Notes: a model not told the origin generated them from the sequence alone. A stretch of DNA of 64,000 nt from a virus (IMGVR_UViG_2778261505_000002); one strand, 5' to 3'; shown: positions 1,079 to 51,563, numbered from the stretch's first letter. Numbers and translations: made by a program.

Positions 1079-1089
1079 TCAAGGATTTT

Positions 1090-18132: not shown

Positions 18133-18213
18133 AAAATAAGCGTGGAGAACACCTCCACGCTTGATTCATTGGTGAAACAACTTTTCTTTTGCCAAACCAC
18201 AAAAGAAAAACAC

Positions 18214-19470: not shown

Positions 19471-20253
19471 ATGAAAGACGAAATTCAGAAATTAGCCTGC
19501 GACATCATTGATAAAACTGGTTTAGAAATCAGCGAGAGCAATCGGCTAGACATCATTGAAAAAGCCGTAAAAACAGCAATGGATCATATCGCCACTCGTT
19601 TGGTCGAGATCCCGCTACCGGGGCTACCTTATCTGAAGGTTAAGTTACACGTATGGGGTGAACCTTCTTGTGCACGGCGTTCTGCATTAGTTGTTTTTAT
19701 TAGCAAAGAAAACCCGATCAGTCTTAAAGTGCAGGTTGGGGCATGGATGGATGGCAAAGTGATCTACACAAATACCGTTTTTTGTGCGTCAAATGACAGT
19801 ATTATTGAAGAGGCTATTCAAGAATCACTTCTAACTATGCATAGCTTATTTTTGCTGGAAGACAAGCAAAACTACGAAGAGTACTTACGGTCGATAAAAG
19901 GTGAGAGAACATTGTCACTTAAAGCCGATTTCGTTACCCCGACAAACCTGTTGGAAGTCTTGCTTAATAAAGGGGCTAATGATGCCGTAAATGTAATCAG
20001 AGAGAGTGAGTATGCGTCTCTTTGCGACATGTGCAAAAGCCAGTTGGATCTGGTGCATATCGTTATTGATGCTGGGAAGGCATGTGATGGCGTAATGGCG
20101 GAGTTTGCTGGGAAGATGGTCAGGATTGCTAACGAATTACCGATGATAGAGCAAGAGGCTAAATCATACGCCACCAATCATGTCACAGAGCTTCTTGTCC
20201 CCTATCGCTTAGAAAGCGATCAGCGCAAGATGATTAGCTGGGGAAGTTGGTAA
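19471..20253 (+). CDS. Hypothetical protein
   Basis: 260-aa ORF with upstream palindromic motif and GGAG RBS. Confidence 0.45.
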   Translation: MKDEIQKLACDIIDKTGLEISESNRLDIIEKAVKTAMDHIATRLVEIPLPGLPYLKVKLHVWGEPSCARRSALVVFISKENPISLKVQVGAWMDGKVIYTNTVFCASNDSIIEEAIQESLLTMHSLFLLEDKQNYEEYLRSIKGERTLSLKADFVTPTNLLEVLLNKGANDAVNVIRESEYASLCDMCKSQLDLVHIVIDAGKACDGVMAEFAGKMVRIANELPMIEQEAKSYATNHVTELLVPYRLESDQRKMISWGSW

Positions 20254-20308: not shown

Positions 20309-20791
20309 TTGGCGGTAATTGTGAAAGCTGATTTGTCAAAAATCCCCTCTATTTCAGGAAATAATGGTTATTCACTTCGTTGTGAGGAAGTAAAGATAAA
20401 CGGTGAGTCGGCATATTGCAGCTACTCCGTTTGCCAGCACACCATTCTTGCCTTCAAAGAAAACCGTCTTCCTCGAACTTCATTCCAGTCGTGCGCAACC
20501 GCTATCAAAGCAGGCAAATGCAAGGCGTTAAAAATGATGGTTGAAGAGATTCGTAAAGGAGAATCTCTGTATTTCGAAGATATGACCGCGCTCATTAAGG
20601 AGGTTGAAGAACGGAATAAACAAGCCAGAACTTTAAAACGAAAACGTGACAGTGTAACGATTAATAGCATGGTTAAGAAGAGCGCCACATCACAAACAGC
20701 GATCACTGACGTGTATGCGGCGTTGCTTGAAGAAACAACAAAAGAAACACATGAGCAAATCGATCAACATATGGAGGTAAAACAACAATGA
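20309..20791 (+). CDS. Hypothetical Cys-rich protein
   Basis: 160-aa ORF; several Cys in the N-terminal half; 3' end overlaps the ligase start. Confidence 0.4.
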   Translation: MAVIVKADLSKIPSISGNNGYSLRCEEVKINGESAYCSYSVCQHTILAFKENRLPRTSFQSCATAIKAGKCKALKMMVEEIRKGESLYFEDMTALIKEVEERNKQARTLKRKRDSVTINSMVKKSATSQTAITDVYAALLEETTKETHEQIDQHMEVKQQ

Positions 20792-22110
20792 AAAAGTTGA
20801 TCGCACTTAAGCATAAGCTGGACGAAATGAAAGTTATGGGCACCAATGCAAAAAAAGAGGCATTGGCCAACATGGATGACTTTGAACAAAGCATGGTTTC
20901 ATTGATGCTCAACCCTTTCATCCGTTTTGGGGTAAAGAAATACAAAGTGGCAGAGCCGCTTAGTGAGTCCATCCCAAGTGACGAAAAAGCCATTGATGTA
21001 CTGAATAAGCTGGCCTCTCGCGAGCTAACGGGGAACGCAGCAATAGCAGCTGTTGAGTCTATCGTGGCGTCAATGTGCGCCGATGGGCAGGACGTGTTCC
21101 GTCGTTTCCTCTTAAAAGACCCGAAAGCTGGCGTTGGGATTAGCCTATGCAACAAGGTTTTTGAAAATCCCATTCCGAAATTCGAGGTGCAGCTGGCGTC
21201 ACCGTATAAAGAAAAAGGCGACAAATACCCCTTCAAGCCAAATCCTAAAGCAAAATGGCCGATGATTGGCAGTCTTAAGCTCGATGGTTTGCGAGTAATT
21301 TGCGAGGTTATTGTTGACGAGGAAGAGGTTAACTTCCTTTCTCGTACTGGTAATCCAATCACGTCTCTCGATCACCTAAAGCCAGCCATGCTCGAATTAG
21401 GCAAACTTTCAGGCCACAAACACATCTTCTTCGATGGTGAAGGAACTGCCGGTTCATTTAACCAGTCCGTATCTGCATTGCGCAAAAAGAACGTGCAGGC
21501 AATTGGCGCTATTTATCATGTTTTCGACTTCTTCCTACCGGAATGGCGAGCACAGGCTAAATCCAAAGAGTATGCAAAGACAGGTATGAAGCTGAAAGAG
21601 CGCCTGGCTATGCTGGTGGCGTTGTTCAAAAACGATCGCAGTGAAGGCTACACACAAGACATTCACCTGCATCCGTTCTATATCATCCATAGCCACGAAG
21701 ACTTCATCGAACGCTTCATGAAACGCCTGGACGATAACGAAGAAGGGGAGATGGGCAAAGATCCGAACTCTGTTTACGAGTTTAAACGTACCCGCAGCTG
21801 GTGGAAGTTAAAAGACGAAGATTCAGAAGATGGTGAAATTATCGACTTTGAGCCGGGCGACCCGGACTCTGGTTTTGCCAACACACTTGGAAAAATTGTT
21901 ATTCGTCTTGAAAACGGCGTCATCGTTCGTGCGAGCGGCATTAAGCATAAATATCTGGATGAGATCTGGAACAACAAAGAGAAGTACCGTGGTCGTATTG
22001 TCGAGGTTCATTGTCACGAGAAAACACCGGACGGCAGCTTACGCCACCCACGACTGAAATGGCCGCGTTGCTTACGCGATACAGAAGATCGAATCGGAGA
22101 TAAAGAATGA
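20788..22110 (+). CDS. ATP-dependent DNA ligase
   Basis: Adenylation motif I (KLDGLR) and downstream nucleotidyltransferase motifs; 440 aa. Confidence 0.8.
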   Translation: MKKLIALKHKLDEMKVMGTNAKKEALANMDDFEQSMVSLMLNPFIRFGVKKYKVAEPLSESIPSDEKAIDVLNKLASRELTGNAAIAAVESIVASMCADGQDVFRRFLLKDPKAGVGISLCNKVFENPIPKFEVQLASPYKEKGDKYPFKPNPKAKWPMIGSLKLDGLRVICEVIVDEEEVNFLSRTGNPITSLDHLKPAMLELGKLSGHKHIFFDGEGTAGSFNQSVSALRKKNVQAIGAIYHVFDFFLPEWRAQAKSKEYAKTGMKLKERLAMLVALFKNDRSEGYTQDIHLHPFYIIHSHEDFIERFMKRLDDNEEGEMGKDPNSVYEFKRTRSWWKLKDEDSEDGEIIDFEPGDPDSGFANTLGKIVIRLENGVIVRASGIKHKYLDEIWNNKEKYRGRIVEVHCHEKTPDGSLRHPRLKWPRCLRDTEDRIGDKE

Positions 22111-23699: not shown

Positions 23700-23774
23700 G
23701 ATGGTGTAGCTCAGCGGTAGAGCAGTTGGCTGTTAACCAACTGGTCGGTGGTTCGAATCCACCCACCATCGCCA
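23700..23774 (+). tRNA. tRNA-Asn (anticodon GTT)
   Basis: Cloverleaf folded by hand: 7-bp acceptor stem GATGGTG/CACCATC, anticodon loop CTGTTAA, GGTTCGAATCC T-arm, encoded CCA. Confidence 0.85.
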
Positions 23775-23779
23775 ATTTA

Positions 23780-23866
23780 GGGGAGTTAGTCCGTAGAGGT
23801 AGCGGTGTAGACTGTAAATCTACTGTCATTGCGACTCGGGTGGTTCGACTCCATCACTCCCCACCA
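23780..23866 (+). tRNA. tRNA-Tyr (anticodon GTA), long variable arm
   Basis: Acceptor GGGGAGT/ACTCCCC, anticodon stem-loop GTAGA-CTGTAAA-TCTAC, long variable arm, T-loop TTCGACT, CCA; D-arm pairing is atypical. Confidence 0.75.
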
Positions 23867-23870
23867 AATT

Positions 23871-23946
23871 GCCGGTTTAGCTCAGTTGGTAGAGCGCCTG
23901 CCTTGTAAGCAGGATGTCAGCGGTTCGAGTCCGTTAACCGGCACCA
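23871..23946 (+). tRNA. tRNA-Thr (anticodon TGT)
   Basis: Acceptor GCCGGTT/AACCGGC, D-arm GCTCAGTTGGTAGAGC, anticodon loop CTTGTAA, T-loop TTCGAGT, CCA. Confidence 0.85.
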
Positions 23947-24163
23947 ACACAACAGGAAAGAGCATTGAAAACCGCCGAGACTGCCCTGTTTTAAGCGTAA
24001 GTCCGTGCAAACGTCATACAGTGCTCTTTTCGTTGTGGTTGATGCGCAGACTGATGCGCGGAAAGAAATGCCCCAGCGACACACGAGGCGAGTTCACACA
24101 CTGCAATGCAGTCAGTAGCCGGGGTCGCTAAGCCGGAGATCAGTACCGGTAACCACAACAATT

Positions 24164-24250
24164 GGAGAGTAGGGAGCATGGTGCTCAAGCGGTCTTGAAA
24201 ACCGTCCCATTGTGCAAGCGATGATGGTTCGATTCCATTACTCTCCGCCA
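24164..24250 (+). tRNA. tRNA-Ser (anticodon TGA), type II with long variable arm
   Basis: Acceptor GGAGAGT/ACTCTCC, anticodon loop CTTGAAA, 17-nt variable arm, T-loop TTCGATT, CCA. Confidence 0.75.
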
Positions 24251-27321: not shown

Positions 27322-29430
27322 ATGTCTAAAAAACGTTCCATCAAAGAGGTTCAGGACTTCCGTGACAGTGTAAAACGAGTAGTCGCTCTCCTTTCAGGTA
27401 AAAACATCCCTGTTGCAGAACGAGGGGACGACGCTTATGTTCGCTATAACGATGATGGAGAGCCAATTCTCGTAAACATCCCATCAATCCCGGATAACGC
27501 AACACCGGCATTGATGAATGCTGTGCGCGGATTTCTCGATCATGAGGTTGCTCACATTTTGTTTACCGATATTCGTGTGTCCAACAAAATGAGAGAAAAA
27601 GGACGCGTTCCTTCCTGGTCGCTATGGAATGCCTTAGAAGACGTGTTCATCGAGCGAAAAATGGGTCAGGTCTTTAACGGAACAAGACGTAATCTGATGG
27701 CAACTCAGCGCCTTATAATCGAAAAAGTCTTTAAACCAAAGGCTTCAGAGGCTATTGCTTATTGTGGCAAAGATCAGCGCGCGCTTTTTCTAAACTTCTT
27801 TCTCTGTCCGGTTGTAAGAGCCTGGGATGGCCAAGCACCGTTCGTAGATTTCATGGATGAATATTGGCCTGTCATTGAGAAACCAATTTCATTATTAAAA
27901 GAACATGGTATCGATGTGGCCGTGCGTAACATGTCTTGCACCGAGGATTGTGTAAAGGTGGCTGCGACCATAGCTAAGATCCTCAAAGACACTGAAAGTG
28001 AAAGCAAAGGTAAGGAGTCAGCTCCGGGAAAAACTTCCGATCCTTCAGACGCTGACCAGACGGATGCCTCTGGAGAAAACAGTGAAGACAACGAAGATCA
28101 TGAGACACCCTCAGTGTTAGATAATCACAAATCTATCAAATCAGAATCACACAGTAAGCACAAACATGATAATAACGACAGTGATGATTCAGATAATTCT
28201 GAATCATCAGAAACAATATTCGATGATACAGAAAATGATAAAGAGGTATCAGATTCTGATGCTTCTGATAACGCGGCGTCAGAATCATTAACCGCTGACC
28301 ACGAAAAAAGAAAAACGACAGAAGACGGCTCTTCAGATATCCCAACTCCGTCAAAAATGAGTCTGGAAGAGGCTTTAGAGGAGTTGGATAGCATGGAAGA
28401 TGAAGTCGGAGGCATGACAGAAGATGCGCTATCCGAAACGATTAAAAGCGAGTTAACAGAAAGCTCGAAAAGCGAATACAGGCCATACAATCGCTCATAC
28501 GACTTCATCGGCTCGATTGATCAGGCAGAAGCCCATATCAAACGGCTTATTAAAACATTCTCCGATATTGATTTGGGAGGATATCCAATCAGCCGCTATC
28601 GCATCGTTCCTGAAGGCAACCAGCTCTTCGACAAATATATTGAAAAGCATCTTTCGTCAGGTGTTTCGTCGACGCTGGCAAAAGACCTGGAGCGAGCAAT
28701 AGCAAGCAGAAACAGAGTTCAGTTTATACCGGGCCAGCGTCGGGGGCGCATTCATGGTTCTAGTATCTACAGATTAGCAATGAATGATGCTCGCGTGTTT
28801 CGTAAAAAAGAAGAATCTAAAGCCGTTAACGCCTGTGTTCAACAAGTGATTGATTTATCAGGTTCAATGAGTGGTATAACGATACAATTGGCTCTTGCAA
28901 GTGCATATACCATCGCCGATGCCCTTGATCGAATAAATGTTCCCAACATTATCACCGGCTTCACTACATTTGGTAGTCATATGGCGGCAGGAGAACTTAA
29001 GGCTGTCAAGTATGAGTTCTCTCGCTTTGAATCTTTAATGCTACCTATCATCAAAAATTGGAATGAAAAGGTAAATTCTCGCGAAGTTCGCTCACGTATG
29101 GGGTGCGTAGGCTACACATTCCCACTTCTTAATAACGTGGATGGTGAAAGCATAGCCAGCCTTGCATCGTTATTTTCCGGTCGCTTGGAGGACAGGAAGA
29201 TCATGCTTGTTCTGAGTGATGGCGCGCCGTGGGCTGTTGGGAGAGGTTTTGACGCTCATTTGCGTTCAGTTGCGAAGCAAATTGAAACGCAGACTGATAT
29301 TGATTTGATGGCAATTGGCATCATGACTGACGCACCGGAGAGATTTTACTCAAATCATGCCCTGGTAACGAGCGTTGATAGTCTTGGTTCATCTGTAGTT
29401 ACTGAACTATCTCGTATCATTTTAAAGTGA
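27322..29430 (+). CDS. vWA-domain protein with acidic Ser/Asp-rich linker (CobT-like partner of an AAA+ ATPase)
   Basis: C-terminal MIDAS-type motif (VIDLSGSMSG ... LVLSDGAP); ~130-aa low-complexity acidic stretch (SDDSDNSESSE...); directly upstream of a MoxR/CobS-like AAA+ gene. Confidence 0.65.
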   Translation: MSKKRSIKEVQDFRDSVKRVVALLSGKNIPVAERGDDAYVRYNDDGEPILVNIPSIPDNATPALMNAVRGFLDHEVAHILFTDIRVSNKMREKGRVPSWSLWNALEDVFIERKMGQVFNGTRRNLMATQRLIIEKVFKPKASEAIAYCGKDQRALFLNFFLCPVVRAWDGQAPFVDFMDEYWPVIEKPISLLKEHGIDVAVRNMSCTEDCVKVAATIAKILKDTESESKGKESAPGKTSDPSDADQTDASGENSEDNEDHETPSVLDNHKSIKSESHSKHKHDNNDSDDSDNSESSETIFDDTENDKEVSDSDASDNAASESLTADHEKRKTTEDGSSDIPTPSKMSLEEALEELDSMEDEVGGMTEDALSETIKSELTESSKSEYRPYNRSYDFIGSIDQAEAHIKRLIKTFSDIDLGGYPISRYRIVPEGNQLFDKYIEKHLSSGVSSTLAKDLERAIASRNRVQFIPGQRRGRIHGSSIYRLAMNDARVFRKKEESKAVNACVQQVIDLSGSMSGITIQLALASAYTIADALDRINVPNIITGFTTFGSHMAAGELKAVKYEFSRFESLMLPIIKNWNEKVNSREVRSRMGCVGYTFPLLNNVDGESIASLASLFSGRLEDRKIMLVLSDGAPWAVGRGFDAHLRSVAKQIETQTDIDLMAIGIMTDAPERFYSNHALVTSVDSLGSSVVTELSRIILK

Positions 29431-29525: not shown

Positions 29526-30761
29526 ATGACGACTACTGCACTGCAAAATGAAAAAAATCCTTCTGATTACCTTGTTTGCAAGTGGTGCGGCAAATCATTT
29601 CACTATTTTAAGTCCCATGTAGCCAATGGTAATTGCGAGGGCATTCCTGAGTCAGTAAAAGATGCCGATCCTGACACCGTACTGAAAATGTACACAACGC
29701 AGTTTCCAGATGAACCAACGCTATCGAAAAAGGCACTTGATGCAATTCAAGCTAAACGTGCCGAGCAAAAAAGCGAAATGGCCAAATCTTCTGGCTTGAC
29801 CAGTAGCCCTGGCTACACAGGCACAGTTGAGTACAAGACAGATCTGGTCGCAGCTCACGAACTGCTAAACGTAACGGTGGAAGAACTCGGAACAAAACGT
29901 GGGACGCCGCTCATGGTTAGCGTCAACGTCAATACGCCGTATCCAGAGTTCGTTCCCGAAGTGAAGAAAGGCTACGTATATGGCGACTTCGAACTGATCA
30001 AAGATATTTTCATGATGCTTGAACTTGGCATACCTGGCTATTTGTGGGGTCATGCAGGAACAGGCAAATCGTCATTGCCTACACAGCTATGTGCTTTGCT
30101 CAATCGTCCGTTGATCCGTGCCCAACATACAGCATCAATGGAAGAGGCACATGTTACGGGGCAAATTCTGGCGCGTGATGGCTCTACGTATTTCGAACCT
30201 GGCTTGCTTGCGCTCGCAATGAAGCATGGCTGGGTTTACCTCGCGGATGAATACGACTTTGCGTTTCCACAAATTCTTGGCGTGTATCAGCCAGTGCTGG
30301 AAGGTGAAGCGTTGGTCATCAAAGAGGCAACTCCAGAATGGCGTCGCATTACTCCGCATGAACGGTTTGCTTTCATTGGCACTGGCAACACGAACGGATC
30401 TGGTGATGAAACCGGCTTGTACCAGGGTACAAACATCCAGAACGCCGCGAACTTTTCGCGTTTTGGCATCGTTTCGAATGTGAAATACATGAGCAAAGAC
30501 GCAGAGATCAACATGCTGACAAATGCAGGCATCGTGGATGAATACGCTGAAAAGATGGTTAAGTTTGCCGGTATCGTTCGCGATGGATACGAAGAACACC
30601 TCATTAGTCAGCCAATTGGCCCTCGTGAACTTTTGTTGTCGGCCAAGATTGGAATGATGCGAGGCGACTTTGTGACAGGTATTGAGCGTTCTTTCATTAA
30701 CAAACTCCCTTCAGCTTCTGCACAAGCGGCTCGTGAAGTTGTTCAAAAAATATTTGGTTAA
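29526..30761 (+). CDS. AAA+ ATPase, MoxR/CobS-like
   Basis: Walker A GHAGTGKSS, Walker B (WVYLADEYD), sensor region; N-terminal Cys/His cluster (CKWCGKSFHYFKSH). Confidence 0.7.
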   Translation: MTTTALQNEKNPSDYLVCKWCGKSFHYFKSHVANGNCEGIPESVKDADPDTVLKMYTTQFPDEPTLSKKALDAIQAKRAEQKSEMAKSSGLTSSPGYTGTVEYKTDLVAAHELLNVTVEELGTKRGTPLMVSVNVNTPYPEFVPEVKKGYVYGDFELIKDIFMMLELGIPGYLWGHAGTGKSSLPTQLCALLNRPLIRAQHTASMEEAHVTGQILARDGSTYFEPGLLALAMKHGWVYLADEYDFAFPQILGVYQPVLEGEALVIKEATPEWRRITPHERFAFIGTGNTNGSGDETGLYQGTNIQNAANFSRFGIVSNVKYMSKDAEINMLTNAGIVDEYAEKMVKFAGIVRDGYEEHLISQPIGPRELLLSAKIGMMRGDFVTGIERSFINKLPSASAQAAREVVQKIFG

Positions 30762-30941: not shown

Positions 30942-33900
30942 ATGAAGGCACTGATGGTTCGAACTGACTTCTCACTTGGGGAGTCGGCTCTAAAAGCAGA
31001 AAACGCGGTGAAGATTGCCAGAGAAGCTGGCTACACCGCTGTAATTTCAGCAGATAGCATGAATATTGCGAGCGTTATTCCACTACAACGTGCCGCTGGT
31101 GACGACATGGCGGTTATTTGTGGTGTGAAACTAAACATTGTTGATGATCCCACATACGAGCACCGGGCTAAACTTGCTAAAGAATCTATGAGATGTATGG
31201 AATCATTAGAGCGAGGACGTAACTACTCGTTTACCGCTCTAATTAAAAATGAGAAAGGATATCGCGACATCTGCGAACTAATGACGGCGGCCAACACACG
31301 AGAACAGTTCTACTTTGTACCGCGTCTCTCGCTCGAACAGTTGGTTTCTACATATGCCAAAGGCAACATCATCCTGCTTACTTCCGACATCGGTAGCGTG
31401 TTCCAACGCAACGATTTTGCAAAAATCATAAGCACACTGATTACAGCGGGTGGAAAAGACAACTTCTATAGTGTGGTTTATCCGCACCCTACCCCATTCT
31501 ACGACCAGATTAACGTCCGGGCGATGAAAGTCGCCAGCGCATTGAAAATAGAGCCAGTGGCGTTCTATCCCGCTTATTACGAATCGATCGACGATGCAGA
31601 CATTAAAGACATTGCGCACATGGTTACGAACAACATCAAAATCGACCAGCCGCATCGTCTGCGTATCCCCCACCAGCGAGATAACGCCGTCAATGGTCGC
31701 CGCCATCTCCTTGAGGCGCTTAAAGCCTTCTCCGTTCGCATGGATGTGCCGGTAACAGCTGCAATGGCCTCAACAACGCAGGATACCATTATCGATGCCT
31801 GCACATGGCGCTGGCATGAATTGCCGCCAGCACTGCCAAAGATGGCAGACGACGAGCCTGCAACGCTGATGAAACTGGCTGTTGCAGGGCTGCGTAAACG
31901 TCTTACCACAAAAGAGTTTGGATACACACCACCTGCTTCTGAGAACAGGGTTTATGTTGAGCGGCTAAAGTACGAAATGGACACGCTGACTCGCCTGGGA
32001 TTCTGTGGTTACTTCCTGATGGTACGCGATCTGATGAATCACAGCCGTGAAACTGGCATTCCTGTCGGGCCTGGTCGTGGTTCCTCCGCTGGATCTCTGG
32101 TGGCATGGTGCATAGGCATAACCAACGTCGACCCAATCCGTCACGGTCTTCTGTTTGAGCGTTTCATCAACCCTGAGCGTCTCGACTTGCCAGATGCGGA
32201 TTTGGACTTCAGCCAGGCACGTCGCCATGAGGTGATCGAGTATCTGAATGAACGATACGGCGAAGATTACGTTGCAGGTATTCCTAACTTCACATATCTG
32301 GGCGCAGCCTCTGCACTACGTGACACCGCTCGTATTTATGGTGTGGAGTCCGCAGATATGGCGGTATCAAAAGAGCTGAGGAACGTCGAGGATGATAGCC
32401 TTCCATTGGAAGAGCTGCGCGAACAACTGGCAAGTCTCGACAAATACGCGACAAAATACCCTGATGCATTCAATGCAGCCTGCAAGTTACAAAGCCTTAT
32501 GCGTGGCTTTGGTAGACATGCGGCAGGGATGATTGTAGCAGGTGTTCCTCTGACAGAACGTACACCGGTTGAACGACGTGGTGACGCGCGTTGTATCGCA
32601 TTTGACAAGCGTTACTGCGAGGCTATGGGCCTAATTAAGCTGGACGTGCTTGGCCTGGCAACTCTCGATTTGCTCGATAGTGCAAAACGCTACATAAAAG
32701 AGAACACAGGTGAAGATATCAATCTTGATGCCATTTCTCTTGAAGATCGCAAGGTGCTGGATGGTTTTGCTGCTGGGTACACTCAAGGTGTTTTCCAGCT
32801 TGAATCAGGCCCAATGCGCAAGCTGCTTAAAGATTTAGGTGGTGGAATTGAGCCAATGAGCTTTAAAACGGTCGTTGCTACGACTGCGCTCTTCCGGCCG
32901 GGGCCAATTCAGTCAGGCATGTTGGATGATTATGTTTCTGTCGCCAAAGGCTTTATGACGCCGGAATCATTACACCCCGTTCTTGATGAACTTACCGCAG
33001 AAACAAATGGCGTGATTCTTTATCAGGAACAGACGATGAACGCGACTCGATTGCTTGCTGGCTTCACAATGGCTGAAGCTGACGGCGTTCGTAAAGCGAT
33101 CGGCAAAAAAGACATGGAGAAAATGAAGAGCATGGGTGAGAAGTTCATCGTTCAGGCTCAAGCTGGCTGGATAGACGTTGAGCTGGAAGATGGCACTACA
33201 CAGCGCATTCACCGTGCGGAACATTTTAAATGCGAAGACGGAACACTGAAAACTGTCGAAGAGGCACTTGAGTACGGCGCAAAACTACCTATAAACGCAG
33301 TACGCGTTACAGCGTCACATCCAGGGCTATCAGAGATGAAAGCGAAGGAGATCTGGACCGCATTCGAAAAGAATGGTGCCTACCAGTTCAACAAATCACA
33401 CTCTGTTGCTTACTCCTTAATCAGTTATCAATCTATGTGGTTGAAAACTCATTATCCCGCAGAGTTTTTCGCTGCTGCTCTCACTATTCTTGGCGAAGAT
33501 AAACACCAGGGGCTGGTTAAAGATGCGCTGACCTATGGTATTCGCGTATTGCCACCAGACGTTAACGTGTCATCTAACCGAATCGAGATCCGCACGCTTG
33601 AAGATGGCAGCCAGGTGCTGTATGCGCCCTTCTCTGCTGTGAAAGGGTGTTCTGAGAATGGCTGCCAAGCCATCATGAGAGCGCGAGAAAAAGTTGGCGG
33701 CAAATTCGAGTCACTGGCGCAATTCGAAGAAGCTGTCGAGAAACGTGCCTGTAATAGTCGAGTGCGCGAATCACTGCAAAAAGTAGGTGCGTTTGCATCC
33801 ATCGAGCCAGGTAGTCTGCCAGCAACTGATCCAGAGCGTCTCCGCGACCAGGCTGAATTGATGGGAAACCTTGTCATAGACGCAGTTAAAGCCTCACGTC

Positions 33901-34460
33901 CGTTTGAGATGAACCCCAAACGTTCGGCTGAAATTAACGCACTCATGACACGGATGGCGGCTGAAATGGGCTTAGGTGATGAACTAATCCGCCCCAGCAT
34001 TGGTATTAAGCCGAAAATCATGATCATTCTGGACAATGCGAACGGCAATGATGCTCGAACCGGTTACTTCATGGAGAACGGATACGACGACTTTAAGGCC
34101 AAGCTATTGACGGCTGGAGATTTACGCATGGGCGATCTCTATGTCACAGGCGTTTGCAAGAAGGTTAAAGACAAAGAAAAAGACTACACCAAAGACGAGA
34201 TCGGCCAGTTCACCGACTTTATACGTGAAGAGATCAATCTGGTGCGTCCGACCTATGTGCTGACGTGTGGCAGCCGGGCAACGGCATTGTTTAACAACAA
34301 AAACAAGCCATCCGATTTGGTCGGCAGGAAGGAGTATCTTCCAGACCTTGACGTTACTGTCTTTTACGGGTTTAACCCCAACATTCTTTACTTCAGACCT
34401 GAAGAGGGAGAACGACTAGAAGCGATATTAGCCGACGTAGCAGAAACTATTAAGACGTGA
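30942..34460 (+). CDS. dnaE: DNA polymerase III alpha subunit (DnaE-type, with PHP domain)
   Basis: 1172 aa; N-terminal PHP-like start, polymerase core motifs GPGRGSSAGSLVAWCIGITNVDP and FERFINPER...DADLDF, downstream HhH-like segment. Confidence 0.9.
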   Translation: MKALMVRTDFSLGESALKAENAVKIAREAGYTAVISADSMNIASVIPLQRAAGDDMAVICGVKLNIVDDPTYEHRAKLAKESMRCMESLERGRNYSFTALIKNEKGYRDICELMTAANTREQFYFVPRLSLEQLVSTYAKGNIILLTSDIGSVFQRNDFAKIISTLITAGGKDNFYSVVYPHPTPFYDQINVRAMKVASALKIEPVAFYPAYYESIDDADIKDIAHMVTNNIKIDQPHRLRIPHQRDNAVNGRRHLLEALKAFSVRMDVPVTAAMASTTQDTIIDACTWRWHELPPALPKMADDEPATLMKLAVAGLRKRLTTKEFGYTPPASENRVYVERLKYEMDTLTRLGFCGYFLMVRDLMNHSRETGIPVGPGRGSSAGSLVAWCIGITNVDPIRHGLLFERFINPERLDLPDADLDFSQARRHEVIEYLNERYGEDYVAGIPNFTYLGAASALRDTARIYGVESADMAVSKELRNVEDDSLPLEELREQLASLDKYATKYPDAFNAACKLQSLMRGFGRHAAGMIVAGVPLTERTPVERRGDARCIAFDKRYCEAMGLIKLDVLGLATLDLLDSAKRYIKENTGEDINLDAISLEDRKVLDGFAAGYTQGVFQLESGPMRKLLKDLGGGIEPMSFKTVVATTALFRPGPIQSGMLDDYVSVAKGFMTPESLHPVLDELTAETNGVILYQEQTMNATRLLAGFTMAEADGVRKAIGKKDMEKMKSMGEKFIVQAQAGWIDVELEDGTTQRIHRAEHFKCEDGTLKTVEEALEYGAKLPINAVRVTASHPGLSEMKAKEIWTAFEKNGAYQFNKSHSVAYSLISYQSMWLKTHYPAEFFAAALTILGEDKHQGLVKDALTYGIRVLPPDVNVSSNRIEIRTLEDGSQVLYAPFSAVKGCSENGCQAIMRAREKVGGKFESLAQFEEAVEKRACNSRVRESLQKVGAFASIEPGSLPATDPERLRDQAELMGNLVIDAVKASRPFEMNPKRSAEINALMTRMAAEMGLGDELIRPSIGIKPKIMIILDNANGNDARTGYFMENGYDDFKAKLLTAGDLRMGDLYVTGVCKKVKDKEKDYTKDEIGQFTDFIREEINLVRPTYVLTCGSRATALFNNKNKPSDLVGRKEYLPDLDVTVFYGFNPNILYFRPEEGERLEAILADVAETIKT

Positions 34461-34585: not shown

Positions 34586-35017
34586 ATGATCACCGATATT
34601 TACGAGAAAATAATGTCTGATCTCGAGTTTGACCGAGACAATCTGGAGGAAGTCTGGCGTAGACAACCCCGCCTTTTAATGGAGTATGGCTCAAAACTCG
34701 CTCATGCAGAAAGAAGTGTCGCAGAGGCAAAACTTAACCTTGAAGCTGTTGAAGCAAAGCTATACGACACAGAGCGTAAGAACTTGAGTATGAACGGCAT
34801 TAAGTTCAACGAATCTGTACTGGACGCTAAGGTTAAAACAAACCCACAGTATCTGTCTAAACGGCAGAAGTTGGATGAAGCACGGCACATCGCAGACATA
34901 TACAAACATGCTGTCGCCGCCTTTTCGCATCGCCGAGACATGATCGTTCAGGCGTCAAAGATGGCCATCGTTGAATTAGAGCGATTAGGCTCTGAACGCT
35001 TTATTACTCCCCGTTGA
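34586..35017 (+). CDS. Hypothetical protein; possible recombination mediator (UvsY-like)
   Basis: 143-aa mostly helical ORF directly upstream of the gp32-like SSB; UvsY-like size and charge pattern only. Confidence 0.3.
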   Translation: MITDIYEKIMSDLEFDRDNLEEVWRRQPRLLMEYGSKLAHAERSVAEAKLNLEAVEAKLYDTERKNLSMNGIKFNESVLDAKVKTNPQYLSKRQKLDEARHIADIYKHAVAAFSHRRDMIVQASKMAIVELERLGSERFITPR

Positions 35018-35134
35018 TTTTTGATAGATAATAAGTAAGTACTGATCTATCATTTAACAGCTCGAAAGAGCCACGAATGAACGAAAGCCCAACGCGCATA
35101 GCGCCATCGGCCAAATCACAACAAGGAGAAACAC

Positions 35135-36163
35135 ATGTCTAAGACATTACTTGATTTGCTTAACAAAACTCGTGAAGACATTGCCGCCAAACGTGGTAAC
35201 AACGTTGATCTGACTCGCTTAAAAGACGGCGTCAACTATATTCGCATCTTCCCGAATAAAGACGACCCAAACGGTAAGTTCTTCCAGACTTTCGGTATGC
35301 ACTACGTTAAGTATCAGAACGAGGAAGGTAAAGAAGCAACCAACGCTTATATTTGTGAGCAACATACTCACGGTCGCGCTTGTCAGCTATGCGAAATGGT
35401 GATGGAAGGTCGCGCTCGTCACAAGGGTAACAAAGCAATGGAAGAACGCATCGGTCAAATGCGTGCCACTCCTCGCTACCTGGTCAACGGCATTCTTTCT
35501 GCTCGTGAGGATTTCGCAGATGCTGAGAAATGCCAGTTAATCGAGCTGCCGTCTACTGTATTCGATGATATCTGCAAAGCAATCACCGAAGACATCGCTG
35601 ATGATATCGGCAATCCACTGAGCAAAGAGGAAGGCTACGCATTCCTGATTAAACGTACTGGCTCTGGTCGCGATACCAAATATGACGTCTCGCCTAAGCG
35701 TAAAGTCTACAAAGGCGATATCGAAGATAAATTCTGGAATACCCAGCATGATCTGATCGCATACGCAAATCAGGCTGATGAAACTCGTCTTCTGTCGACA
35801 GTTCGCACTATGGGTCGTCTGATTGGCATCGCTGCACCAACTGCCGCAGCATCTGCACCAGCAATTTCCTCAACCGCGAAAACATCGGCTGCGGCACTAC
35901 CTGGATTTGGCTCTGTCACTGGTCATACGGAGGGTGCGACTGCTGTAGCTACCGCTCATACCCCAGCTTCTGAACCAACCAGTCTGGTTGATGAAGAAAT
36001 CCTCCGTGCCGTTGAAACTGAATTTAAACCAGAAGCAAGTCCCGCTGCCGTTGCAGTATCAGTCAAAGAGTCTGAAGCAGTCGCAGCGACATCTGTAGCA
36101 GCCGCATCTGCGACGGAAGATGAAGGTCTGGATGACCTACTGAGAGAGCTGGACTCTCTGTAA
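35135..36163 (+). CDS. Single-stranded DNA-binding protein, T4 gp32-like
   Basis: IRIFPNKDD motif and His/Cys cluster (CEQHTHGRACQLC) matching the gp32 zinc-binding subdomain; acidic C-terminal tail (EDEGLDDLLRELDSL). Confidence 0.75.
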   Translation: MSKTLLDLLNKTREDIAAKRGNNVDLTRLKDGVNYIRIFPNKDDPNGKFFQTFGMHYVKYQNEEGKEATNAYICEQHTHGRACQLCEMVMEGRARHKGNKAMEERIGQMRATPRYLVNGILSAREDFADAEKCQLIELPSTVFDDICKAITEDIADDIGNPLSKEEGYAFLIKRTGSGRDTKYDVSPKRKVYKGDIEDKFWNTQHDLIAYANQADETRLLSTVRTMGRLIGIAAPTAAASAPAISSTAKTSAAALPGFGSVTGHTEGATAVATAHTPASEPTSLVDEEILRAVETEFKPEASPAAVAVSVKESEAVAATSVAAASATEDEGLDDLLRELDSL

Positions 36164-36177
36164 TCCCATTACGTGAC

Positions 36178-36208
36178 CAGTAAGGCGTCTACGGACGCCT
36201 TACTTTTT
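36178..36208 (+). terminator. Rho-independent terminator (GGCGTC hairpin family)
   Basis: TAAGGCGTC-TACG-GACGCCTTA followed by CTTTTT. Confidence 0.85.
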
Positions 36209-36223
36209 GGAAGGAATGTACCG

Positions 36224-37168
36224 GTGAATTATCTCTTCGTAGATGGCAATAGCCTGGGTTATTACCACCAACAATCTGACAAATTGCACAACGGCGAAAT
36301 GGAAGTACAGGCTGCTTTCGGCTTTGTTAAGAACGTCCGTCGTTATGCCTCCATCCTTCATGCCCGACCTATGATTCTTTGGGATGGATTTAGTGACAAG
36401 CGTCGCGACTTTTACCCGGACTACAAAGCAAATCGCGACGACGATCCTGATATGAAAAAGATGAAGGAAGGCTTTGCTATCCAGAAGCCATACATCCTCA
36501 AAATGATGACCGCGCTTGGAGTTACCCAACTCATTGCAAAAGATGCAGAAGCGGATGATCTGGCCGGGCTGCTGGTAGCCAGCATTGCACCGCAGCCAAT
36601 CGTTGAACACATCTATCTGTTAACAGGCGATAGCGACTGGCTTCAGTTAGTTCGCGAAAACGTAAGCTGGGTAAGCCTGCGCGAAGACGCCAAAAACAAG
36701 CAGGTTAATTTTGAGCAATTTGCGGAACTGACAGGATTCGCTACTCCTCGCGCATTTTTGGAAGCAAAAGCATTACAAGGCGATAACTCGGACAACATTA
36801 GCGGTGTTGGTGGCATTGGTGCTGGCGGTGCGAAAGAGCTGCTGCATGAATGGGGAAGTGTCGCAACGATGGTACGCGGCATCAACGACGGCTCAATCGT
36901 GGTTAATAAAGGGCGTCATAAGACCGCCTTCAACAAACTAGCGAAGAATGCCTTCAACGAGAAAACAGGCTGTCGAATGCTCGAAGCGTTCAAGAGAAAC
37001 ATCACGCTAATGAACCTGATTGAGACGAAGTTTCCGCCTACCGAAATCGAAACAATCAAAGGCAATCGTGACGTGAAAGCATTCGAGCAACTGTGCTACG
37101 AGCTGAATTTCCGTTCGTTCCTTGAAGACCTTGAAGTGTTTGTTCTTCCATTCGAAAGGTATTGCTAA
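36224..37168 (+). CDS. 5'-3' exonuclease / flap endonuclease (FEN, RNase H-like)
   Basis: LFVDGNSL, AKDAEADD and LLTGDSDWLQL acidic motifs; start set at GTG after GGAAGGAA RBS because the track ATG at 36173 lies inside the upstream terminator. Confidence 0.75.
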   Translation: MNYLFVDGNSLGYYHQQSDKLHNGEMEVQAAFGFVKNVRRYASILHARPMILWDGFSDKRRDFYPDYKANRDDDPDMKKMKEGFAIQKPYILKMMTALGVTQLIAKDAEADDLAGLLVASIAPQPIVEHIYLLTGDSDWLQLVRENVSWVSLREDAKNKQVNFEQFAELTGFATPRAFLEAKALQGDNSDNISGVGGIGAGGAKELLHEWGSVATMVRGINDGSIVVNKGRHKTAFNKLAKNAFNEKTGCRMLEAFKRNITLMNLIETKFPPTEIETIKGNRDVKAFEQLCYELNFRSFLEDLEVFVLPFERYC

Positions 37169-37434
37169 TGCTTAAATCGATTATCAATGGCGCTACAACC
37201 ACCCCTGCCCAACTGGCAAAAGAGATTGTCTTTTATCACGGTGAGTACGCTGTCATCGCACTGCCGTCAATTCTAGGCGCTGCCGGAATGAAAGCGACAG
37301 ATCGCGAGTTTGGATTAGTCAGCGAGCAGGTCGTAAAAATCCTCGCTCGTGTATCCAGACTCCTTAACCACGATGCGATTGTATTCGATGAATCCGCCGC
37401 TTTAAAACGAATCAACGAAACAAAAGGAGCCTGA
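37162..37434 (+). CDS. Hypothetical protein
   Basis: 90-aa ORF overlapping the FEN stop; AAAGGAG RBS precedes the following gene. Confidence 0.4.
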   Translation: MLMLKSIINGATTTPAQLAKEIVFYHGEYAVIALPSILGAAGMKATDREFGLVSEQVVKILARVSRLLNHDAIVFDESAALKRINETKGA

Positions 37435-37436
37435 TC

Positions 37437-38510
37437 ATGGCAAAAGGAAAATCCGCACTGGCACTTGCTCTGAAAAAGAAAATCGGTAGCAACGACGAAA
37501 TTCAGAAAGTAACTCATTGGATTGATACAGGCTTTCCACCGTTAAACAAAGCTATTTCTGGTCGTTACGATGGCGGCTTCCCATGTGGTCGTATCGTCGA
37601 AGTATTCGGTCCTCCAAGTGCAGGGAAAACGTTCCTTGCAACAGCAGCGATGATCTCCGCTCAAAAACAAGATGGTCTGGCGGTATTCCTCGATCATGAA
37701 AACAGTTTTGACGTTGGCCTGGCTGTCGCCAATGGCCTGAACGCAGATGAGGATGACGGTCAGTGGGTATACAAGCAGCCTGACACCTTCGAAGACTCTG
37801 TAGAGTTGATCGGCACAATACTTAAATTGGTACGTGATGAAGAGCTTATCCCTGAATCAGCACCTATCTGTATCGTGGCTGACTCACTTGCGTCTATGGT
37901 TCCGAACTCCAAAGCCGAGAAGTTCGAAAAGATGGCTGAAGGCACTGCCAAAGACAAAGATCAGCTAAACATGAACGACAATACGGCACTGGCTCGTGCG
38001 ACAAGTGCGAACTTCCCTACTCTGGCTTTGTGGGCACGCAAATACAACGCCTGCATCATCTTCTTGAATCAGGTTCGCACAAAAATCGGTGTAATGTTTG
38101 GCGACCCTACTACGTCGCCAGGTGGAGATTCACCGAAGTTCTACGCTTCTGTACGTATCCGTCTTGGTGCATCGGTGATGAAGGATGGTAAAGAGAAGAT
38201 CGGCCAGGACGTAGGCGCAGAATGCATCAAAAACAAAGTTGCACCACCGTATGGCAAATGCACCTGGAAATTCTACTTCGATCCTACTCGTGGCCTCGAC
38301 GTTATCGAATCGCTCGTCGAGTACATGCTGGAAGAAGGATACCTGCCAAAGAACGCCAGCGGGCGAGTTGAAATTGGTGACAAGAAATACACCAAATCAC
38401 AGATCGTCGAGATGTATCGGGAGAAGCCACTGGCTGAAATCATTGCGGCTTTGCAGGCAATCGACGACCGAAGAGCAAAAGACAACCCCACCGAGTCAGT
38501 AGAAGAGTAA
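37437..38510 (+). CDS. RecA/UvsX-like recombinase
   Basis: Walker A (FGPPSAGKT), Walker B-like IIFLNQVR, and RecA-signature GGDSPKFYASVRIRL. Confidence 0.8.
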   Translation: MAKGKSALALALKKKIGSNDEIQKVTHWIDTGFPPLNKAISGRYDGGFPCGRIVEVFGPPSAGKTFLATAAMISAQKQDGLAVFLDHENSFDVGLAVANGLNADEDDGQWVYKQPDTFEDSVELIGTILKLVRDEELIPESAPICIVADSLASMVPNSKAEKFEKMAEGTAKDKDQLNMNDNTALARATSANFPTLALWARKYNACIIFLNQVRTKIGVMFGDPTTSPGGDSPKFYASVRIRLGASVMKDGKEKIGQDVGAECIKNKVAPPYGKCTWKFYFDPTRGLDVIESLVEYMLEEGYLPKNASGRVEIGDKKYTKSQIVEMYREKPLAEIIAALQAIDDRRAKDNPTESVEE

Positions 38511-44125: not shown

Positions 44126-44172
44126 ATGCAAACTGACTGCGGAACGTGCCGCAGTCATATTTCATAGTCGTC

Positions 44173-44705
44173 ACCGCTGACAGCATACACAATCAACTAC
44201 CGCTGATAGCATATCGAGAGTCTATCTCACCGCTCACAGCATACATTACTCGATTTTTTACCGCTGACAGCATACTTAAGAAATTGCATGAATAATGTGT
44301 CCCGGTATGGGTATAACCAGAACAAAATTACCGCTGGCAGCATACGAATGTCTGACATATACCATTAATTACCGCTGATAGCATATCCAAACAAAAATTC
44401 CTCAATAAAACACCGCTGACAGCATACATTCTATCAGAGAGTAGCAGGCAATAAATGCCTTTCACTACAAGCAATCAGCGCAATAGCAATAGAATGTTAG
44501 TGAGCGCAAACCTATATGGAATGCACTCTTCGAGGTTAGTAACCACTGGGGAGGTATGACAGAGCATTGAGTGGTGATAGATGATTTACCGCTCACAGCA
44601 TACGTTCATCTCACTATACCGCTGGTAGCATATCTTTAACCGTTCACAGCATACTTTTCAGAAAAATAGCCGCTGATAGCATACATTTCACCGCTGACAG
44701 CATAT
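44173..44705. repeat. Iteron array downstream of repA (incA-like), about 12 copies of a 16-bp repeat
   Basis: ACCGCTGACAGCATAC and close variants at about 44173, 44199, 44228, 44259, 44329, 44370, 44411, 44587, 44618, 44639, 44668, 44690; variable spacing; ends at the rep stop codon. Confidence 0.85.
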
Positions 44706-45799
44706 CAAAGCAGTTTGAGACTATTGGAAAGGATCTCAATCATCTTGATATTTTCAGGCGTCAAATTCTGCGAAAGTTCGGTTATCTTGTTGATAATGTT
44801 CTGTTTGGCATCAATTTCCCCAGCTTTCTCATCTGGTTTTTTGGGTTCGATGTCTTCAGGTTTTGGCGGTGCGACTTTGAGTTTTGGATTGCGGCTGTGA
44901 ATCTGGATATAGATCGACCGCCCACGCTTAATCTCGCTGTATTCGAGATAGCCCAAATCTTGGAGAGCTTTTAAGCCGTTACGTATAGTCTGATTCTGCG
45001 AGCTGACATTCCTGCTACTCAAATTGAGTCGCGCACGCAATCGAGCAAGCGATACCGGCGCAGGCTTGGTTGGAAGACTTTCGATGAAGGTGTACAGAGC
45101 CTGTGCTGTTTCTTTGCGTGGTAGCTTATTGATAACCTTTAACTGCAAAAGAACCTTATGGTCAAAGCGATATAGTTCGGCCAGCTTCGGTTCTGCATAG
45201 AACACCACCGTATCTTTCTGCTCGTTGTAGTCCACGCTATTGATGAGGTGCACCATCAGAAGCGAGATCTTGTTAGAGCCGTCGACGTTCTTTTCTTCAT
45301 ACGTTCTCTGGAAAGACAGAGTTGTACGCATGATCTTCAAAAGACTGTTTGTAAGCCGGTCGCGGAGTGTTTTGCGGATCTGTGACGATGGATAGCCACA
45401 AAACTTAGCAAATTTCGTGATACTTAACTCGACACGACCGTTAGGTTCGCCGTATTCTGCCAGCGAACGCACAACGCCCACCCACGTTTTGAAATCATGA
45501 TCCATGTCGAGACGAGGACCGGTTATCTTGATATCGGAATAGCCTTCAGAACGGGCTACTTCGAGCTGGACAAGCTCCTTTGAAGCATCGATCTCATTTG
45601 GCTTGTTACGTTTACTGTATTTTGTTCCCTTAAGCGTGGGGACGAACAACCCCAGTCGCATCAACGCAATTGGTTGGACTGTATTGTTGCTATTAGGGAC
45701 AAGTTCCCCTGTGTACAATTCAAGGGAACCTTCTTCAAAGTTGTCGATGTTATCTTCTACTTCTTTGTTATTTTTACCTTTTTTATTTTTTGTGGACAT
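44705..45799 (-). CDS. repA: Plasmid-type replication initiator (RepA-like, iteron-binding)
   Basis: Flanked on both sides by arrays of the same 16-bp iteron; start set at ATG after AAAGG RBS (track ORF extends to 45919 across the upstream iterons); basic protein of RepA-like size. Confidence 0.7.
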   Translation of the reverse strand: MSTKNKKGKNNKEVEDNIDNFEEGSLELYTGELVPNSNNTVQPIALMRLGLFVPTLKGTKYSKRNKPNEIDASKELVQLEVARSEGYSDIKITGPRLDMDHDFKTWVGVVRSLAEYGEPNGRVELSITKFAKFCGYPSSQIRKTLRDRLTNSLLKIMRTTLSFQRTYEEKNVDGSNKISLLMVHLINSVDYNEQKDTVVFYAEPKLAELYRFDHKVLLQLKVINKLPRKETAQALYTFIESLPTKPAPVSLARLRARLNLSSRNVSSQNQTIRNGLKALQDLGYLEYSEIKRGRSIYIQIHSRNPKLKVAPPKPEDIEPKKPDEKAGEIDAKQNIINKITELSQNLTPENIKMIEILSNSLKLL

Positions 45800-45819
45800 G
45801 TGGACACCTTTGTCATTCA

Positions 45820-45921
45820 ACCGCTGACAGCATACTTGATTTGCCGCTGACAGAATACCAAAAACAGTTGGCAGCATACGGTGAACCGCTGACAGACTAT
45901 CAATTACCGCTGACAGCATAC
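45820..45921. repeat. Iteron array upstream of repA (incC/origin-like), 5 copies at ~21-23 bp spacing
   Basis: ACCGCTGACAGCATAC-type repeats at 45820, 45843, ~45864, 45885, 45906, overlapping the presumed rep promoter. Confidence 0.85.
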
Positions 45922-50993: not shown

Positions 50994-51563
50994 ATGAGTA
51001 AAAAAATCAGCGTAGTTGGTGTTGATCCCTCAATGAGCAACTTTGGGCTTGCTGTGGGCACTTTAGACCTTGAGACGGACGAACTTGAGATTCACGGCCT
51101 TACTCTTGTTGAGACTAAAGCGGGGAGTAACAAAAAGACCGTTCGTGTGAACAGTGACGATCTGCGCCGAGCCAGTGAAATATGGCGTGTTGCGAAGCCA
51201 ATCATTGATAAGGCAAATATGGTTTTTTGTGAGCTACCGGTTGGGAGCCAAAGCTCTCGTTCGCAGACGTCTTACGGTATTTGTATCGGTGTACTTGCGT
51301 GTGTGGATAAGCCATTGATCCAGGTTACTCCAAACGAAATTAAGCATTTTGTCGGCAATAAACTTACTACATCGAAAGAAGAGATTATCCAGTGGGCTAC
51401 GAAAAAACACCCTAAAGCACCGTGGCTGCGTCGTAAGCAATCTGGACAGGATGTTCTCGTGAACAAAAACGAACATTTGGCTGATGCGGTGGCTGCCATC
51501 CATACCGGTATGCAAACAGATCAGTTCCGCCAGGTGCGCGATGTTCTTAAGTCTCTCATTTGA
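50994..51563 (+). CDS. RuvC-like Holliday junction resolvase
   Basis: N-terminal VVGVDPSMSNFGLAV (RuvC-fold first strand with catalytic Asp) and size ~190 aa. Confidence 0.55.
   Translation: MSKKISVVGVDPSMSNFGLAVGTLDLETDELEIHGLTLVETKAGSNKKTVRVNSDDLRRASEIWRVAKPIIDKANMVFCELPVGSQSSRSQTSYGICIGVLACVDKPLIQVTPNEIKHFVGNKLTTSKEEIIQWATKKHPKAPWLRRKQSGQDVLVNKNEHLADAVAAIHTGMQTDQFRQVRDVLKSLI

Follow-up and report, generated by a model that had tools for sequence, protein, structure and literature searches.

An epsilon-like exonuclease and a DnaE polymerase with a C-terminal UDG fold in viral DNA related to phage SSU5

The subject of this study is a 64,000-nucleotide stretch of viral DNA (IMGVR_UViG_2778261505_000002; the window, hereafter), which encodes a C-family DNA polymerase of the DnaE-UDG type together with a separate DnaQ-like 3'-5' exonuclease. 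Judged by its sequence, the window belongs to an SSU5-type siphovirus phage-plasmid from Escherichia coli, a member of the SSU5 supergroup. We consider it probable, with moderate confidence, that this element uses two modes of replication and that its polymerase is proofread in trans. As a plasmid it would be copied from an iteron origin, and during the lytic cycle it would rely on a replication module of its own, in which DnaE-UDG serves as the replicase and the exonuclease as its proofreader. The evidence comes from domain architecture, residue conservation, synteny and co-occurrence among related phages, and is presented below with the alternatives that it bears on.

Architecture of the DnaE-UDG polymerase

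The identity of the polymerase was assessed by domain searches and by comparison with solved structures. Its Pfam matches, to PHP (6e-13), DNA_pol3_alpha (1.7e-73), DNA_pol3_finger (2.6e-44) and HHH_6 (1.8e-16), are all well over the respective cut-offs, and the polymerase (Pol) III alpha subunits of known structure are matched with E values of 5e-122 (Taq, from Thermus), 1.6e-114 (Mycobacterium tuberculosis) and 5e-109 (E. coli). E. coli DnaE is 33% identical to the window protein across 1043 aligned positions. Catalytic aspartates D418 and D420, which lie in a PDADLDF motif, and D568, in a KLDVLGL motif that aligns with KFDFLGL of E. coli, correspond to D463, D465 and D618 of the Taq enzyme, and the first two are kept in 40/40 family members. 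Judged from these residues, the polymerase is a catalytically intact C-family enzyme. An initial annotation of the window had called it a full-length Pol III alpha with a PHP domain. The family assignment, the presence of PHP and the intact aspartate triad agree with that description, but the protein is not a complete alpha subunit, as a uracil-DNA glycosylase (UDG) fold takes the place of the OB and tau-binding domains. The same annotation treated a DnaE-type polymerase as unusual for a tailed phage, which is a fair statement, since few phages carry a C-family polymerase (Kazlauskas et al. 2016).

The PHP domain of some C-family polymerases carries a proofreading activity. M. tuberculosis DnaE1 and Taq Pol III alpha, which give the best overall sequence matches for the polymerase core, keep all nine PHP metal ligands and proofread via this domain, whereas the phage enzyme does not. 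At the nine ligand positions, occupied in M. tuberculosis DnaE1 by H, H, D, H, E, H, C, D and H, the phage protein has M5, R7, E14, S39, K63, a gap, S148, P210 and Y212. None of the nine ligands (0/9) is retained, there is one conservative swap (D to E), and ligand loss extends to 39 of the 40 family members. The alignment indicates that the PHP domain is a structural remnant and that the polymerase has no intrinsic exonuclease. Since the metal ligands are lost, and with them the predicted means of intrinsic proofreading, a trans-acting proofreader is plausible.

At the C-terminus, past approximately residue 960, no credible alignment was obtained with either the OB fold or the tau-binding domain that E. 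coli alpha has there. The window protein has in their place a domain of the UDG superfamily. Its own score against the Pfam UDG model (PF03167) is 19.3 bits, below the cut-off of 24.3, but four relatives with PHP-Pol3-finger-HhH-UDG or HhH-UDG architectures (P0019, P0021, P0047 and P0016) exceed this cut-off, and the window domain is homologous to these above-cut-off UDG proteins (E values to 1e-20 and below). An AlphaFold2 (AF2) model of residues 801-1172 reached a mean predicted local distance difference test (pLDDT) score of 88.9, and its best PDB matches in Foldseek are family-4 UDGs and UdgX (E ~2e-10, probability 1.00, target TM 0.74-0.80). The NCBI label of a fragment of this protein is likewise 'uracil-DNA glycosylase'. 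In an exhaustive HMMER search the domain was common to 145 clusters at 50% identity, where it forms the C-terminus of DnaE-like proteins of ~1080-1140 amino acids (aa) and occurs also in ~390-aa split proteins and, as a distant relative, in UDGs that stand alone. At least 573 stretches of viral contigs encode relatives.

Active family-4 UDGs are characterized by motif A (GE[AG]PG), motif B (HPS(P/A)) and four cysteine ligands of a [4Fe-4S] cluster. In the window protein, motif A reads LDNAN and motif B NPN, the CxxC region is deleted, and a later Fe-S cysteine is Q. Many relatives keep the CxxC or Fe-S cysteines and the motif A proline, both of which the SSU5 lineage has lost. Across the family, motif A takes the form x-D-[ACG]-P, and the histidine position of motif B is N, S or T in 39/40 members. 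An active uracil glycosylase was considered for the window lineage and judged unlikely, given the loss of both glycosylase motifs (A and B) and of the Fe-S cysteines. Canonical uracil excision by this domain is thus unlikely as far as the motifs tell, and the UDG fold is more likely to be a DNA-binding or tracking module than an active glycosylase.

This type of polymerase is not new. DnaE-UDG ('DnaEX') was described as a further polymerase in certain Yersinia pestis and Salmonella enterica strains, with the OB and C-terminal domains swapped for a PF03167 UDG (Timinskas, Balvociute, Timinskas & Venclovas 2014, NAR 42:1393, PMC3919608). The window protein has the same PHP-Pol3-(HhH)2 core followed by UDG, belongs to the same protein family and differs from it in nothing substantive. 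The exact proteins of the window already have NCBI entries, under the names "DNA polymerase III subunit alpha" and, for the second, "3'-5' exonuclease", so that both the gene set and the DnaE-UDG architecture are known from GenBank/RefSeq annotation and from the 2014 publication. What goes beyond that publication is the family-wide loss of PHP ligands, the modelled fold, the loss of cysteines and proline in the SSU5 lineage, and the spread of the family in phages of ~100-120 kb.

The part of the protein between the polymerase core and the UDG fold is the (HhH)2 domain, which Foldseek matches to the counterpart part of Taq and E. coli alpha. At the junction between fingers and HhH lies a 51-aa insertion, seen among 40 family members only in the window protein and in P0008. 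In the relative P0047 this site is occupied by an intein that includes a LAGLIDADG endonuclease, and the split C-terminal genes (~390 aa) start there too. This junction looks like an insertion hot spot, and the 51-aa insert may be the remnant of an earlier insertion.

The exonuclease and the source of processivity

The exonuclease was identified by matches to Pfam RNase_T (4e-22), to PHROG 192, 'DNA polymerase exonuclease subunit' (2e-50), and to E. coli epsilon-186 (1.4e-10). Its closest solved relatives are Pol III epsilon subunits, and it is 30% identical to E. coli epsilon. The DEDDh residues D9, E11, D99, H155 and D160 are invariant in five phage lineages and in E. coli epsilon. These observations bear out the earlier statement that a separate DEDDh exonuclease is encoded at this position. 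Its role as the proofreader of DnaE-UDG, which was also proposed, is supported in part: co-occurrence with the polymerase and the loss of the PHP ligands favor it, but only the domain equivalent to epsilon-186 is present, and physical coupling to the polymerase is something we infer from co-occurrence of the two sequences.

In E. coli, epsilon is held on the polymerase by sequences beyond its catalytic domain. The phage exonuclease stops where the QTSMAF clamp motif of E. coli epsilon would start, ~15 residues past Exo III, and by alignment both this motif and the alpha(PHP)-binding segment (approximately residues 182-243 of E. coli epsilon) are absent. The length appears to be a property of the group, as five phage orthologues all have 185-190 aa. 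A short tail of the form G-[FLY]-[FYV]-x-x-P, encoded in the window at 59950-60000, is common to the orthologues of Escherichia, Pseudomonas, Rhizobium and Stenotrophomonas phages and may be a docking peptide that replaces the long alpha-binding tail of epsilon. Compared with the E. coli Pol III core, the window proteins thus share an alpha subunit with an intact Asp triad, a non-catalytic PHP domain and a separate DEDDh exonuclease. The E. coli core has, in addition, an OB fold, a tau-binding domain, the QADMF motif and the epsilon QTSMAF motif and tail, none of which is established in the window proteins; the theta, beta and clamp-loader genes of the E. coli system were not found in the phage element.

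Association of the two genes was measured by their co-occurrence. Within 10 kb of dnaE, on either side, no DnaQ-like gene was found in 80 viral loci, in keeping with the 25 kb between the two genes in the window, and co-occurrence was therefore counted on complete phage genomes. INPHARED holds 31 records of phages with DnaE-UDG, from Escherichia (4), Salmonella (2), Klebsiella (6), Pseudomonas (6), Rhizobium (10), Stenotrophomonas (2) and Xanthomonas (1). An orthologue of the exonuclease (39-99% identity) could be matched by accession in 25/31, and for the other 6 the genus totals agree.

Pfam and PHROG scans of essentially all non-tail open reading frames (ORFs) of at least ~120 aa in the window gave no match to clamp or clamp-loader families (beta, gamma/tau, gp45/44/62, PCNA/RFC), in agreement with the initial annotation, which had noticed no obvious clamp or loader there and had proposed a search of the remaining genome. 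That search was made on phage PhiR41_1, a 97%-identical relative: nearly all of its remaining ORFs of at least ~190 aa without informative annotation were scanned, again with no clamp or loader match. Nor do the annotations of PhiR41_1 or of Pseudomonas phage nickie name a clamp or loader. The sole AAA+ protein near the polymerase is the CobS-like ATPase of MoxR type. A conserved 249-aa protein encoded just upstream of the helicase gene, with a 27% identical homologue at the same position in nickie, was examined as a clamp candidate and rejected, since its AF2 model is all-alpha (mean pLDDT 86.3) and has no PDB match in fold or sequence; loading of the helicase or binding of an origin are possible functions of this protein.

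A regular-expression search for beta-clamp-binding motifs (QL[SD]LF-like) took in DnaE, the DnaQ-like protein, FEN, ligase and others, and returned a single match, QAELM (residues 970-974) of DnaE. It lies within a longer motif, at residues 966-977, which is better conserved in the family than any other motif outside the catalytic ones (R 37/40, Q 37/40, L 32/40, P 33/40).

Two proposed modes of replication and competing explanations

A phage-plasmid is expected to combine virion genes with the means of plasmid maintenance. Siphovirus structural genes, a replicon and a partition gene were found together with close identity to the SSU5 group, whose supergroup of phage-plasmids has been described (Pfeifer et al. 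2021, PMC7969092), and the whole element, at ~108 kb, falls within the size of about 100-120 kb expected of one circular element of the SSU5 type. In the dnaE region, nucleotide identity is 98.4% to Escherichia phage CMS-2020a, 97.1% to PhiR41_1, 90.5% to Cyrano and 84.6% to Salmonella phage SSU5. These phages and the other members of the supergroup (pHCM2, pMT1, pKpn, pSLy3) have a dnaE of 85-98% nucleotide identity and a like gene order; in their annotations dnaE is 'DNA polymerase III alpha subunit' and the exonuclease is epsilon or 3'-5' exonuclease, and they show no difference of substance from the window. Terminase, portal and head genes were found in PhiR41_1, and the window itself holds tail genes, a ParA gene and an integrase-family gene. 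The plasmid side is evident also from PLSDB, where dnaE is present, and annotated as such, in 745 plasmid records (718/745 non-mobilizable) from Klebsiella, Escherichia, Enterobacter, Yersinia, Salmonella and other hosts.

The replicon consists of a gene for a Rep3-family initiator (RepA) and 15 iterons with a repeat of ~21 nucleotides and the core ACCGCTGACAGCATA, which lie at 44167-44704 and 45814-45920; 11 are downstream of the Rep3-family gene and 4 overlap its 5' end. In the plasmid mode, RepA and this origin would direct copying of the prophage-plasmid and ParA its partition, with the host replisome, by analogy with other iteron plasmids, presumably doing the synthesis. One complete plasmid of 119.8 kb, pTW10722_119 of E. 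coli TW10722 (NZ_CP035843.1), has its dnaE split by IS100 (istA/istB; locus 3001-8478), a natural indication that the element can persist as a plasmid without this polymerase.

In the lytic mode, the element would use its own conserved, co-oriented module of ~40 kb, comprising helicase, primase, ligase, CobT/CobS, DnaE-UDG, single-stranded DNA-binding protein (SSB), flap endonuclease (FEN), RecA-like protein, SbcCD, RuvC-like resolvase and enzymes of deoxynucleotide (dNTP) supply. This module is shared, in the same order, with phages that are otherwise distant: Pseudomonas phage nickie (Nickievirus), Rhizobium phage RHEph10-like, Stenotrophomonas phages ANB28/BUCTxx99 and Xanthomonas phage JGB6. 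Protein identity between these phages and the window is only 26-46%. The order in nickie is helicase, primase, ligase; CobT, CobS; DnaE; SSB, FEN, RecA; SbcD, SbcC, RuvC; NrdA, NrdB, ThyA, kinase; and the DnaQ-like exonuclease, with the CobT/CobS pair directly upstream of dnaE as in the window. No homologue of the Rep3 initiator was found in the 50 kb of nickie compared. No DNA polymerase other than DnaE-UDG was found in the element, and the module occurs in nickie where no Rep3 was found; a lytic-cycle replicase is therefore the best reading of this protein, which most likely serves lytic replication and not plasmid maintenance. Proofreading would most likely be supplied in trans by the co-inherited 185-aa exonuclease, which, because it has no alpha-binding tail, would dock otherwise than E. 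coli epsilon does. Processivity would be conferred by the beta clamp of the host or else by the C-terminal domain of the polymerase itself.

Several observations weigh against this interpretation. The exonuclease gene is 25 kb from dnaE and its product has no epsilon tether, and co-inheritance within one syntenic phage lineage could explain the co-occurrence of the two genes. The IS100-disrupted plasmid is one example, which speaks for persistence and not for fitness. No canonical motif for clamp binding could be established: QAELM, the one candidate, is predicted to be helical (pLDDT ~86-89) and aligns with an E. coli helix, RAALMNSL, and not with QADMF; it may bind a clamp but is probably a structural helix. 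Divergent clamps are hard to spot from sequence (Kazlauskas et al. 2016), and the structural check covered the 249-aa protein upstream of the helicase but left out three conserved proteins of 247-269 aa (19471-20253, 50241-50984 and 60162-60971). An AF2 model built from a multiple sequence alignment cannot tell whether the UDG-like domain binds DNA or uracil, and the searched literature yielded no biochemical or genetic data on this polymerase, the 2014 description of its architecture being the one account found.

If the host Pol III holoenzyme replicated the element in both modes, DnaE-UDG could instead be a polymerase of repair or damage tolerance, either DnaE2-like or part of a uracil-excision, gap-filling pathway with FEN and ligase. 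DnaE2 too is without a tau-binding domain and its PHP is degenerate, most C-family polymerases carried by plasmids are of the DnaE2 type (Timinskas 2014, PMC3919608), and the fused UDG fold, the FEN and ligase genes nearby and a UmuD-like gene in PhiR41_1 are all consistent with such a role, as are the persistence of the plasmid with the disrupted dnaE and the lack of an encoded clamp or loader. However, this is the sole polymerase of a ~108-kb element that brings its own helicase, primase, SSB, ligase and dNTP-supply genes, and the module is syntenic in nickie, where the 50 kb compared gave no Rep3 homologue. ImuA/ImuB partners were not found, the catalytic motifs of the UDG are degenerate, and a co-occurring exonuclease of proofreading type is unexpected for an error-prone enzyme. 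We regard a repair polymerase as quite improbable. A somewhat different possibility, unlikely but deserving more weight, concerns the exonuclease, which might act independently in recombination, end processing, nucleotide salvage from host DNA or counter-defence, leaving the polymerase without proofreading or borrowing host epsilon. The missing clamp motif and alpha-binding segment would fit, as would the location of the gene among those of nucleotide metabolism (ThyA, DHFR, a kinase), 25 kb away from dnaE, and the existence of homologues in Flavobacterium and Ralstonia phages without DnaE-UDG. Yet its closest solved relatives and its PHROG family are those of polymerase exonuclease subunits, its co-occurrence with DnaE-UDG is complete as far as checkable, and its conserved aromatic C-terminal tail could be a docking peptide; moreover, with a PHP site that is dead family-wide, a trans proofreader is expected for a 100-kb genome.

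Processivity raises a further alternative, namely that the UDG-fold domain, possibly with CobS/CobT, replaces the clamp and tau link and makes the polymerase self-sufficient. The UDG fold stands exactly in place of the OB and tau-binding domains of DnaE1, no clamp or loader is encoded, CobS/CobT are kept near dnaE in 24-25 of 25 distant loci, and the poxviral UDG D4 is part of a processivity factor (Kazlauskas et al. 2016). The argument is purely architectural, though; phage CobS/CobT pairs also accompany other polymerases and are generally taken for auxiliary metabolic genes, their function being uncertain; and it is simpler to assume that a C-family polymerase uses the host beta clamp. Self-sufficient processivity is a rather doubtful proposition. 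Still more speculative, and very unlikely in our estimate, is a fully clamp-independent replicase in which the degenerate UDG fold would act as a built-in module for DNA tracking, processivity or the sensing of template uracil, CobS/CobT as a replisome accessory (loader or remodeller) instead of having a cobalamin role, and the exonuclease would dock via G-Phi-Phi-x-x-P. Vaccinia E9 with A20-D4 offers a parallel, as the replicative polymerase there has a UDG-fold module attached to it and works without a ring clamp. E9 is a B-family polymerase, and D4 is a separate, catalytically active UDG of the family-1-like kind. The viral and phage polymerase families (B versus C) are thus unrelated, and the likeness is functional speculation only.

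The replication module and its neighbors

The features discussed here are collected in Table 1, together with the results of a synteny survey of 25 viral contigs (at least 15 kb) whose DnaE C-terminus is 32-41% identical to that of the window, in which homologues were sought within 10 kb of the DnaE match.

Table 1 Features of the window and their conservation near dnaE in distant viral contigs.
Feature	Position	Strand	Basis	Distant contigs with homologue within 10 kb of DnaE match
Tail genes (5' end of window)	1-10065		ORF size and synteny with PhiR41_1	
Conserved 249-aa protein (phrog_2500), just upstream of helicase gene	15999-16748	+		
DnaB-like replicative helicase	16792-18132	+	Pfam DnaB_C 4e-13	
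DnaG/Toprim-type primase	18142-19395	+	Pfam DNAG_N, Toprim_2 (both weak)	
ATP-dependent DNA ligase	20788-22110	+	Pfam DNA_ligase_A_M 6e-13	
CobT-like VWA protein, upstream of CobS-like gene	27322-29430	+	Pfam	24/25
CobS-like AAA_5/MoxR ATPase, directly upstream of dnaE	29526-30761	+	Pfam	25/25
dnaE-like gene, C-family polymerase, DnaE-UDG variant (1172 aa, ATG start)	30942-34460	+	Pfam, PDB matches	
PHP domain with degenerate metal site (about residues 1-290)	30942-31811	+	Alignment with M. tuberculosis DnaE1	
Polymerase core: palm/thumb (309-571) and fingers (574-740)	31866-33161	+	Pfam	
Lineage-specific 51-aa insertion at fingers/HhH junction (residues 742-792)	33165-33317	+	Family alignment	
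(HhH)2 duplex-DNA/beta-binding-type domain (residues 866-955)	33537-33806	+	Pfam HHH_6 1.8e-16	
Family motif R-x-x-D-Q-x-E-L-[ML]-P-G-[LVI], in the window RLRDQAELMGNL (residues 966-977)	33849-33884	+		
UDG-superfamily domain replacing OB and tau-binding domains (about residues 990-1172)	33909-34457	+	Pfam, AF2, Foldseek	
Downstream co-oriented block: 143-aa protein, SSB, FEN, 90-aa ORF, RecA-like	34586-38510	+		
143-aa protein				19/25
gp32-like SSB (T4 type)	35135-36163	+		15/25
FEN/5'-3' exonuclease	36173-37168	+		24/25
RecA-like recombinase	37437-38510	+		23/25
Plasmid replicon: Rep3 gene and 15 iterons	44167-45920	minus	Pfam and repeat family D1	
Rep3-family initiator (RepA)	44705-45919	minus	Pfam Rep3_N 5e-9	
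SbcD-like protein	47020-48105			19/25
SbcC-like protein	48335-50251			19/25
RuvC-like protein	50994-51563			
DnaQ/epsilon-like DEDDh 3'-5' exonuclease (185 aa, catalytic domain only)	59446-60003	+	Pfam, PHROG, PDB	
RNase H (type HI)	62664-63338	+	Pfam RNase_H 1e-44	

The initial annotation had listed a helicase, primase, ligase, gp32-like SSB and RNase H, and Pfam supports each of them, with FEN in addition. The two Pfam matches of the primase are weak (~22-25 bits, at or just under the cut-offs); helicase and primase are each 39% identical to their nickie counterparts, annotated as 'replicative DNA helicase' and dnaG, and the primase gene is annotated as primase in PhiR41_1. The element also encodes RNR, ThyA, DHFR and a kinase for dNTP supply. 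The description of this set as a bacterial-style replisome does not hold. It is a mosaic, in which helicase, primase and polymerase-exonuclease of bacterial type are combined with a T4-type gp32 SSB, an ATP-dependent ligase, FEN, a RecA-like protein and, as the first gene of the downstream block, a 143-aa protein with a weak UvsY-like match.

Several further observations were made on the module and its surroundings. The SbcD, SbcC, RuvC, RecA-like and weak UvsY-like genes form a full recombination set. Distant relatives keep this set together with the polymerase, a hint that replication may depend on recombination. The RecA-like coding sequence is annotated with 2340 nucleotides in PhiR41_1 (98798-101137) and has 1074 in the window; an intein, an insertion or a gene fusion may be present at the PhiR41_1 locus. 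The linkage of CobS/CobT to replication genes sits oddly with their reading as metabolic genes. Elsewhere in the window, four tRNA genes (Asn-GTT, Tyr-GTA, Thr-TGT and Ser-TGA) are clustered at 23700-24250. In the large tail-fibre gene (5914-10065), both strands, and a second frame of the plus strand, have open ORFs of ~326 aa, especially at 6308-7312, where local GC reaches 0.54; this suggests a repetitive, compositionally biased and possibly collagen-like segment.

The DnaE-UDG family is very common, with its 745 PLSDB plasmids and many environmental phages of ~100-120 kb, and its biochemistry is unstudied in the literature searched. It presents a compact natural C-family replicase without a PHP active site, an OB fold, a tau link or an encoded clamp. 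The mechanism by which such a polymerase achieves processivity and fidelity would inform our understanding of replisome evolution, and it might account for the copy-number and mutation behavior of clinically relevant phage-plasmids.

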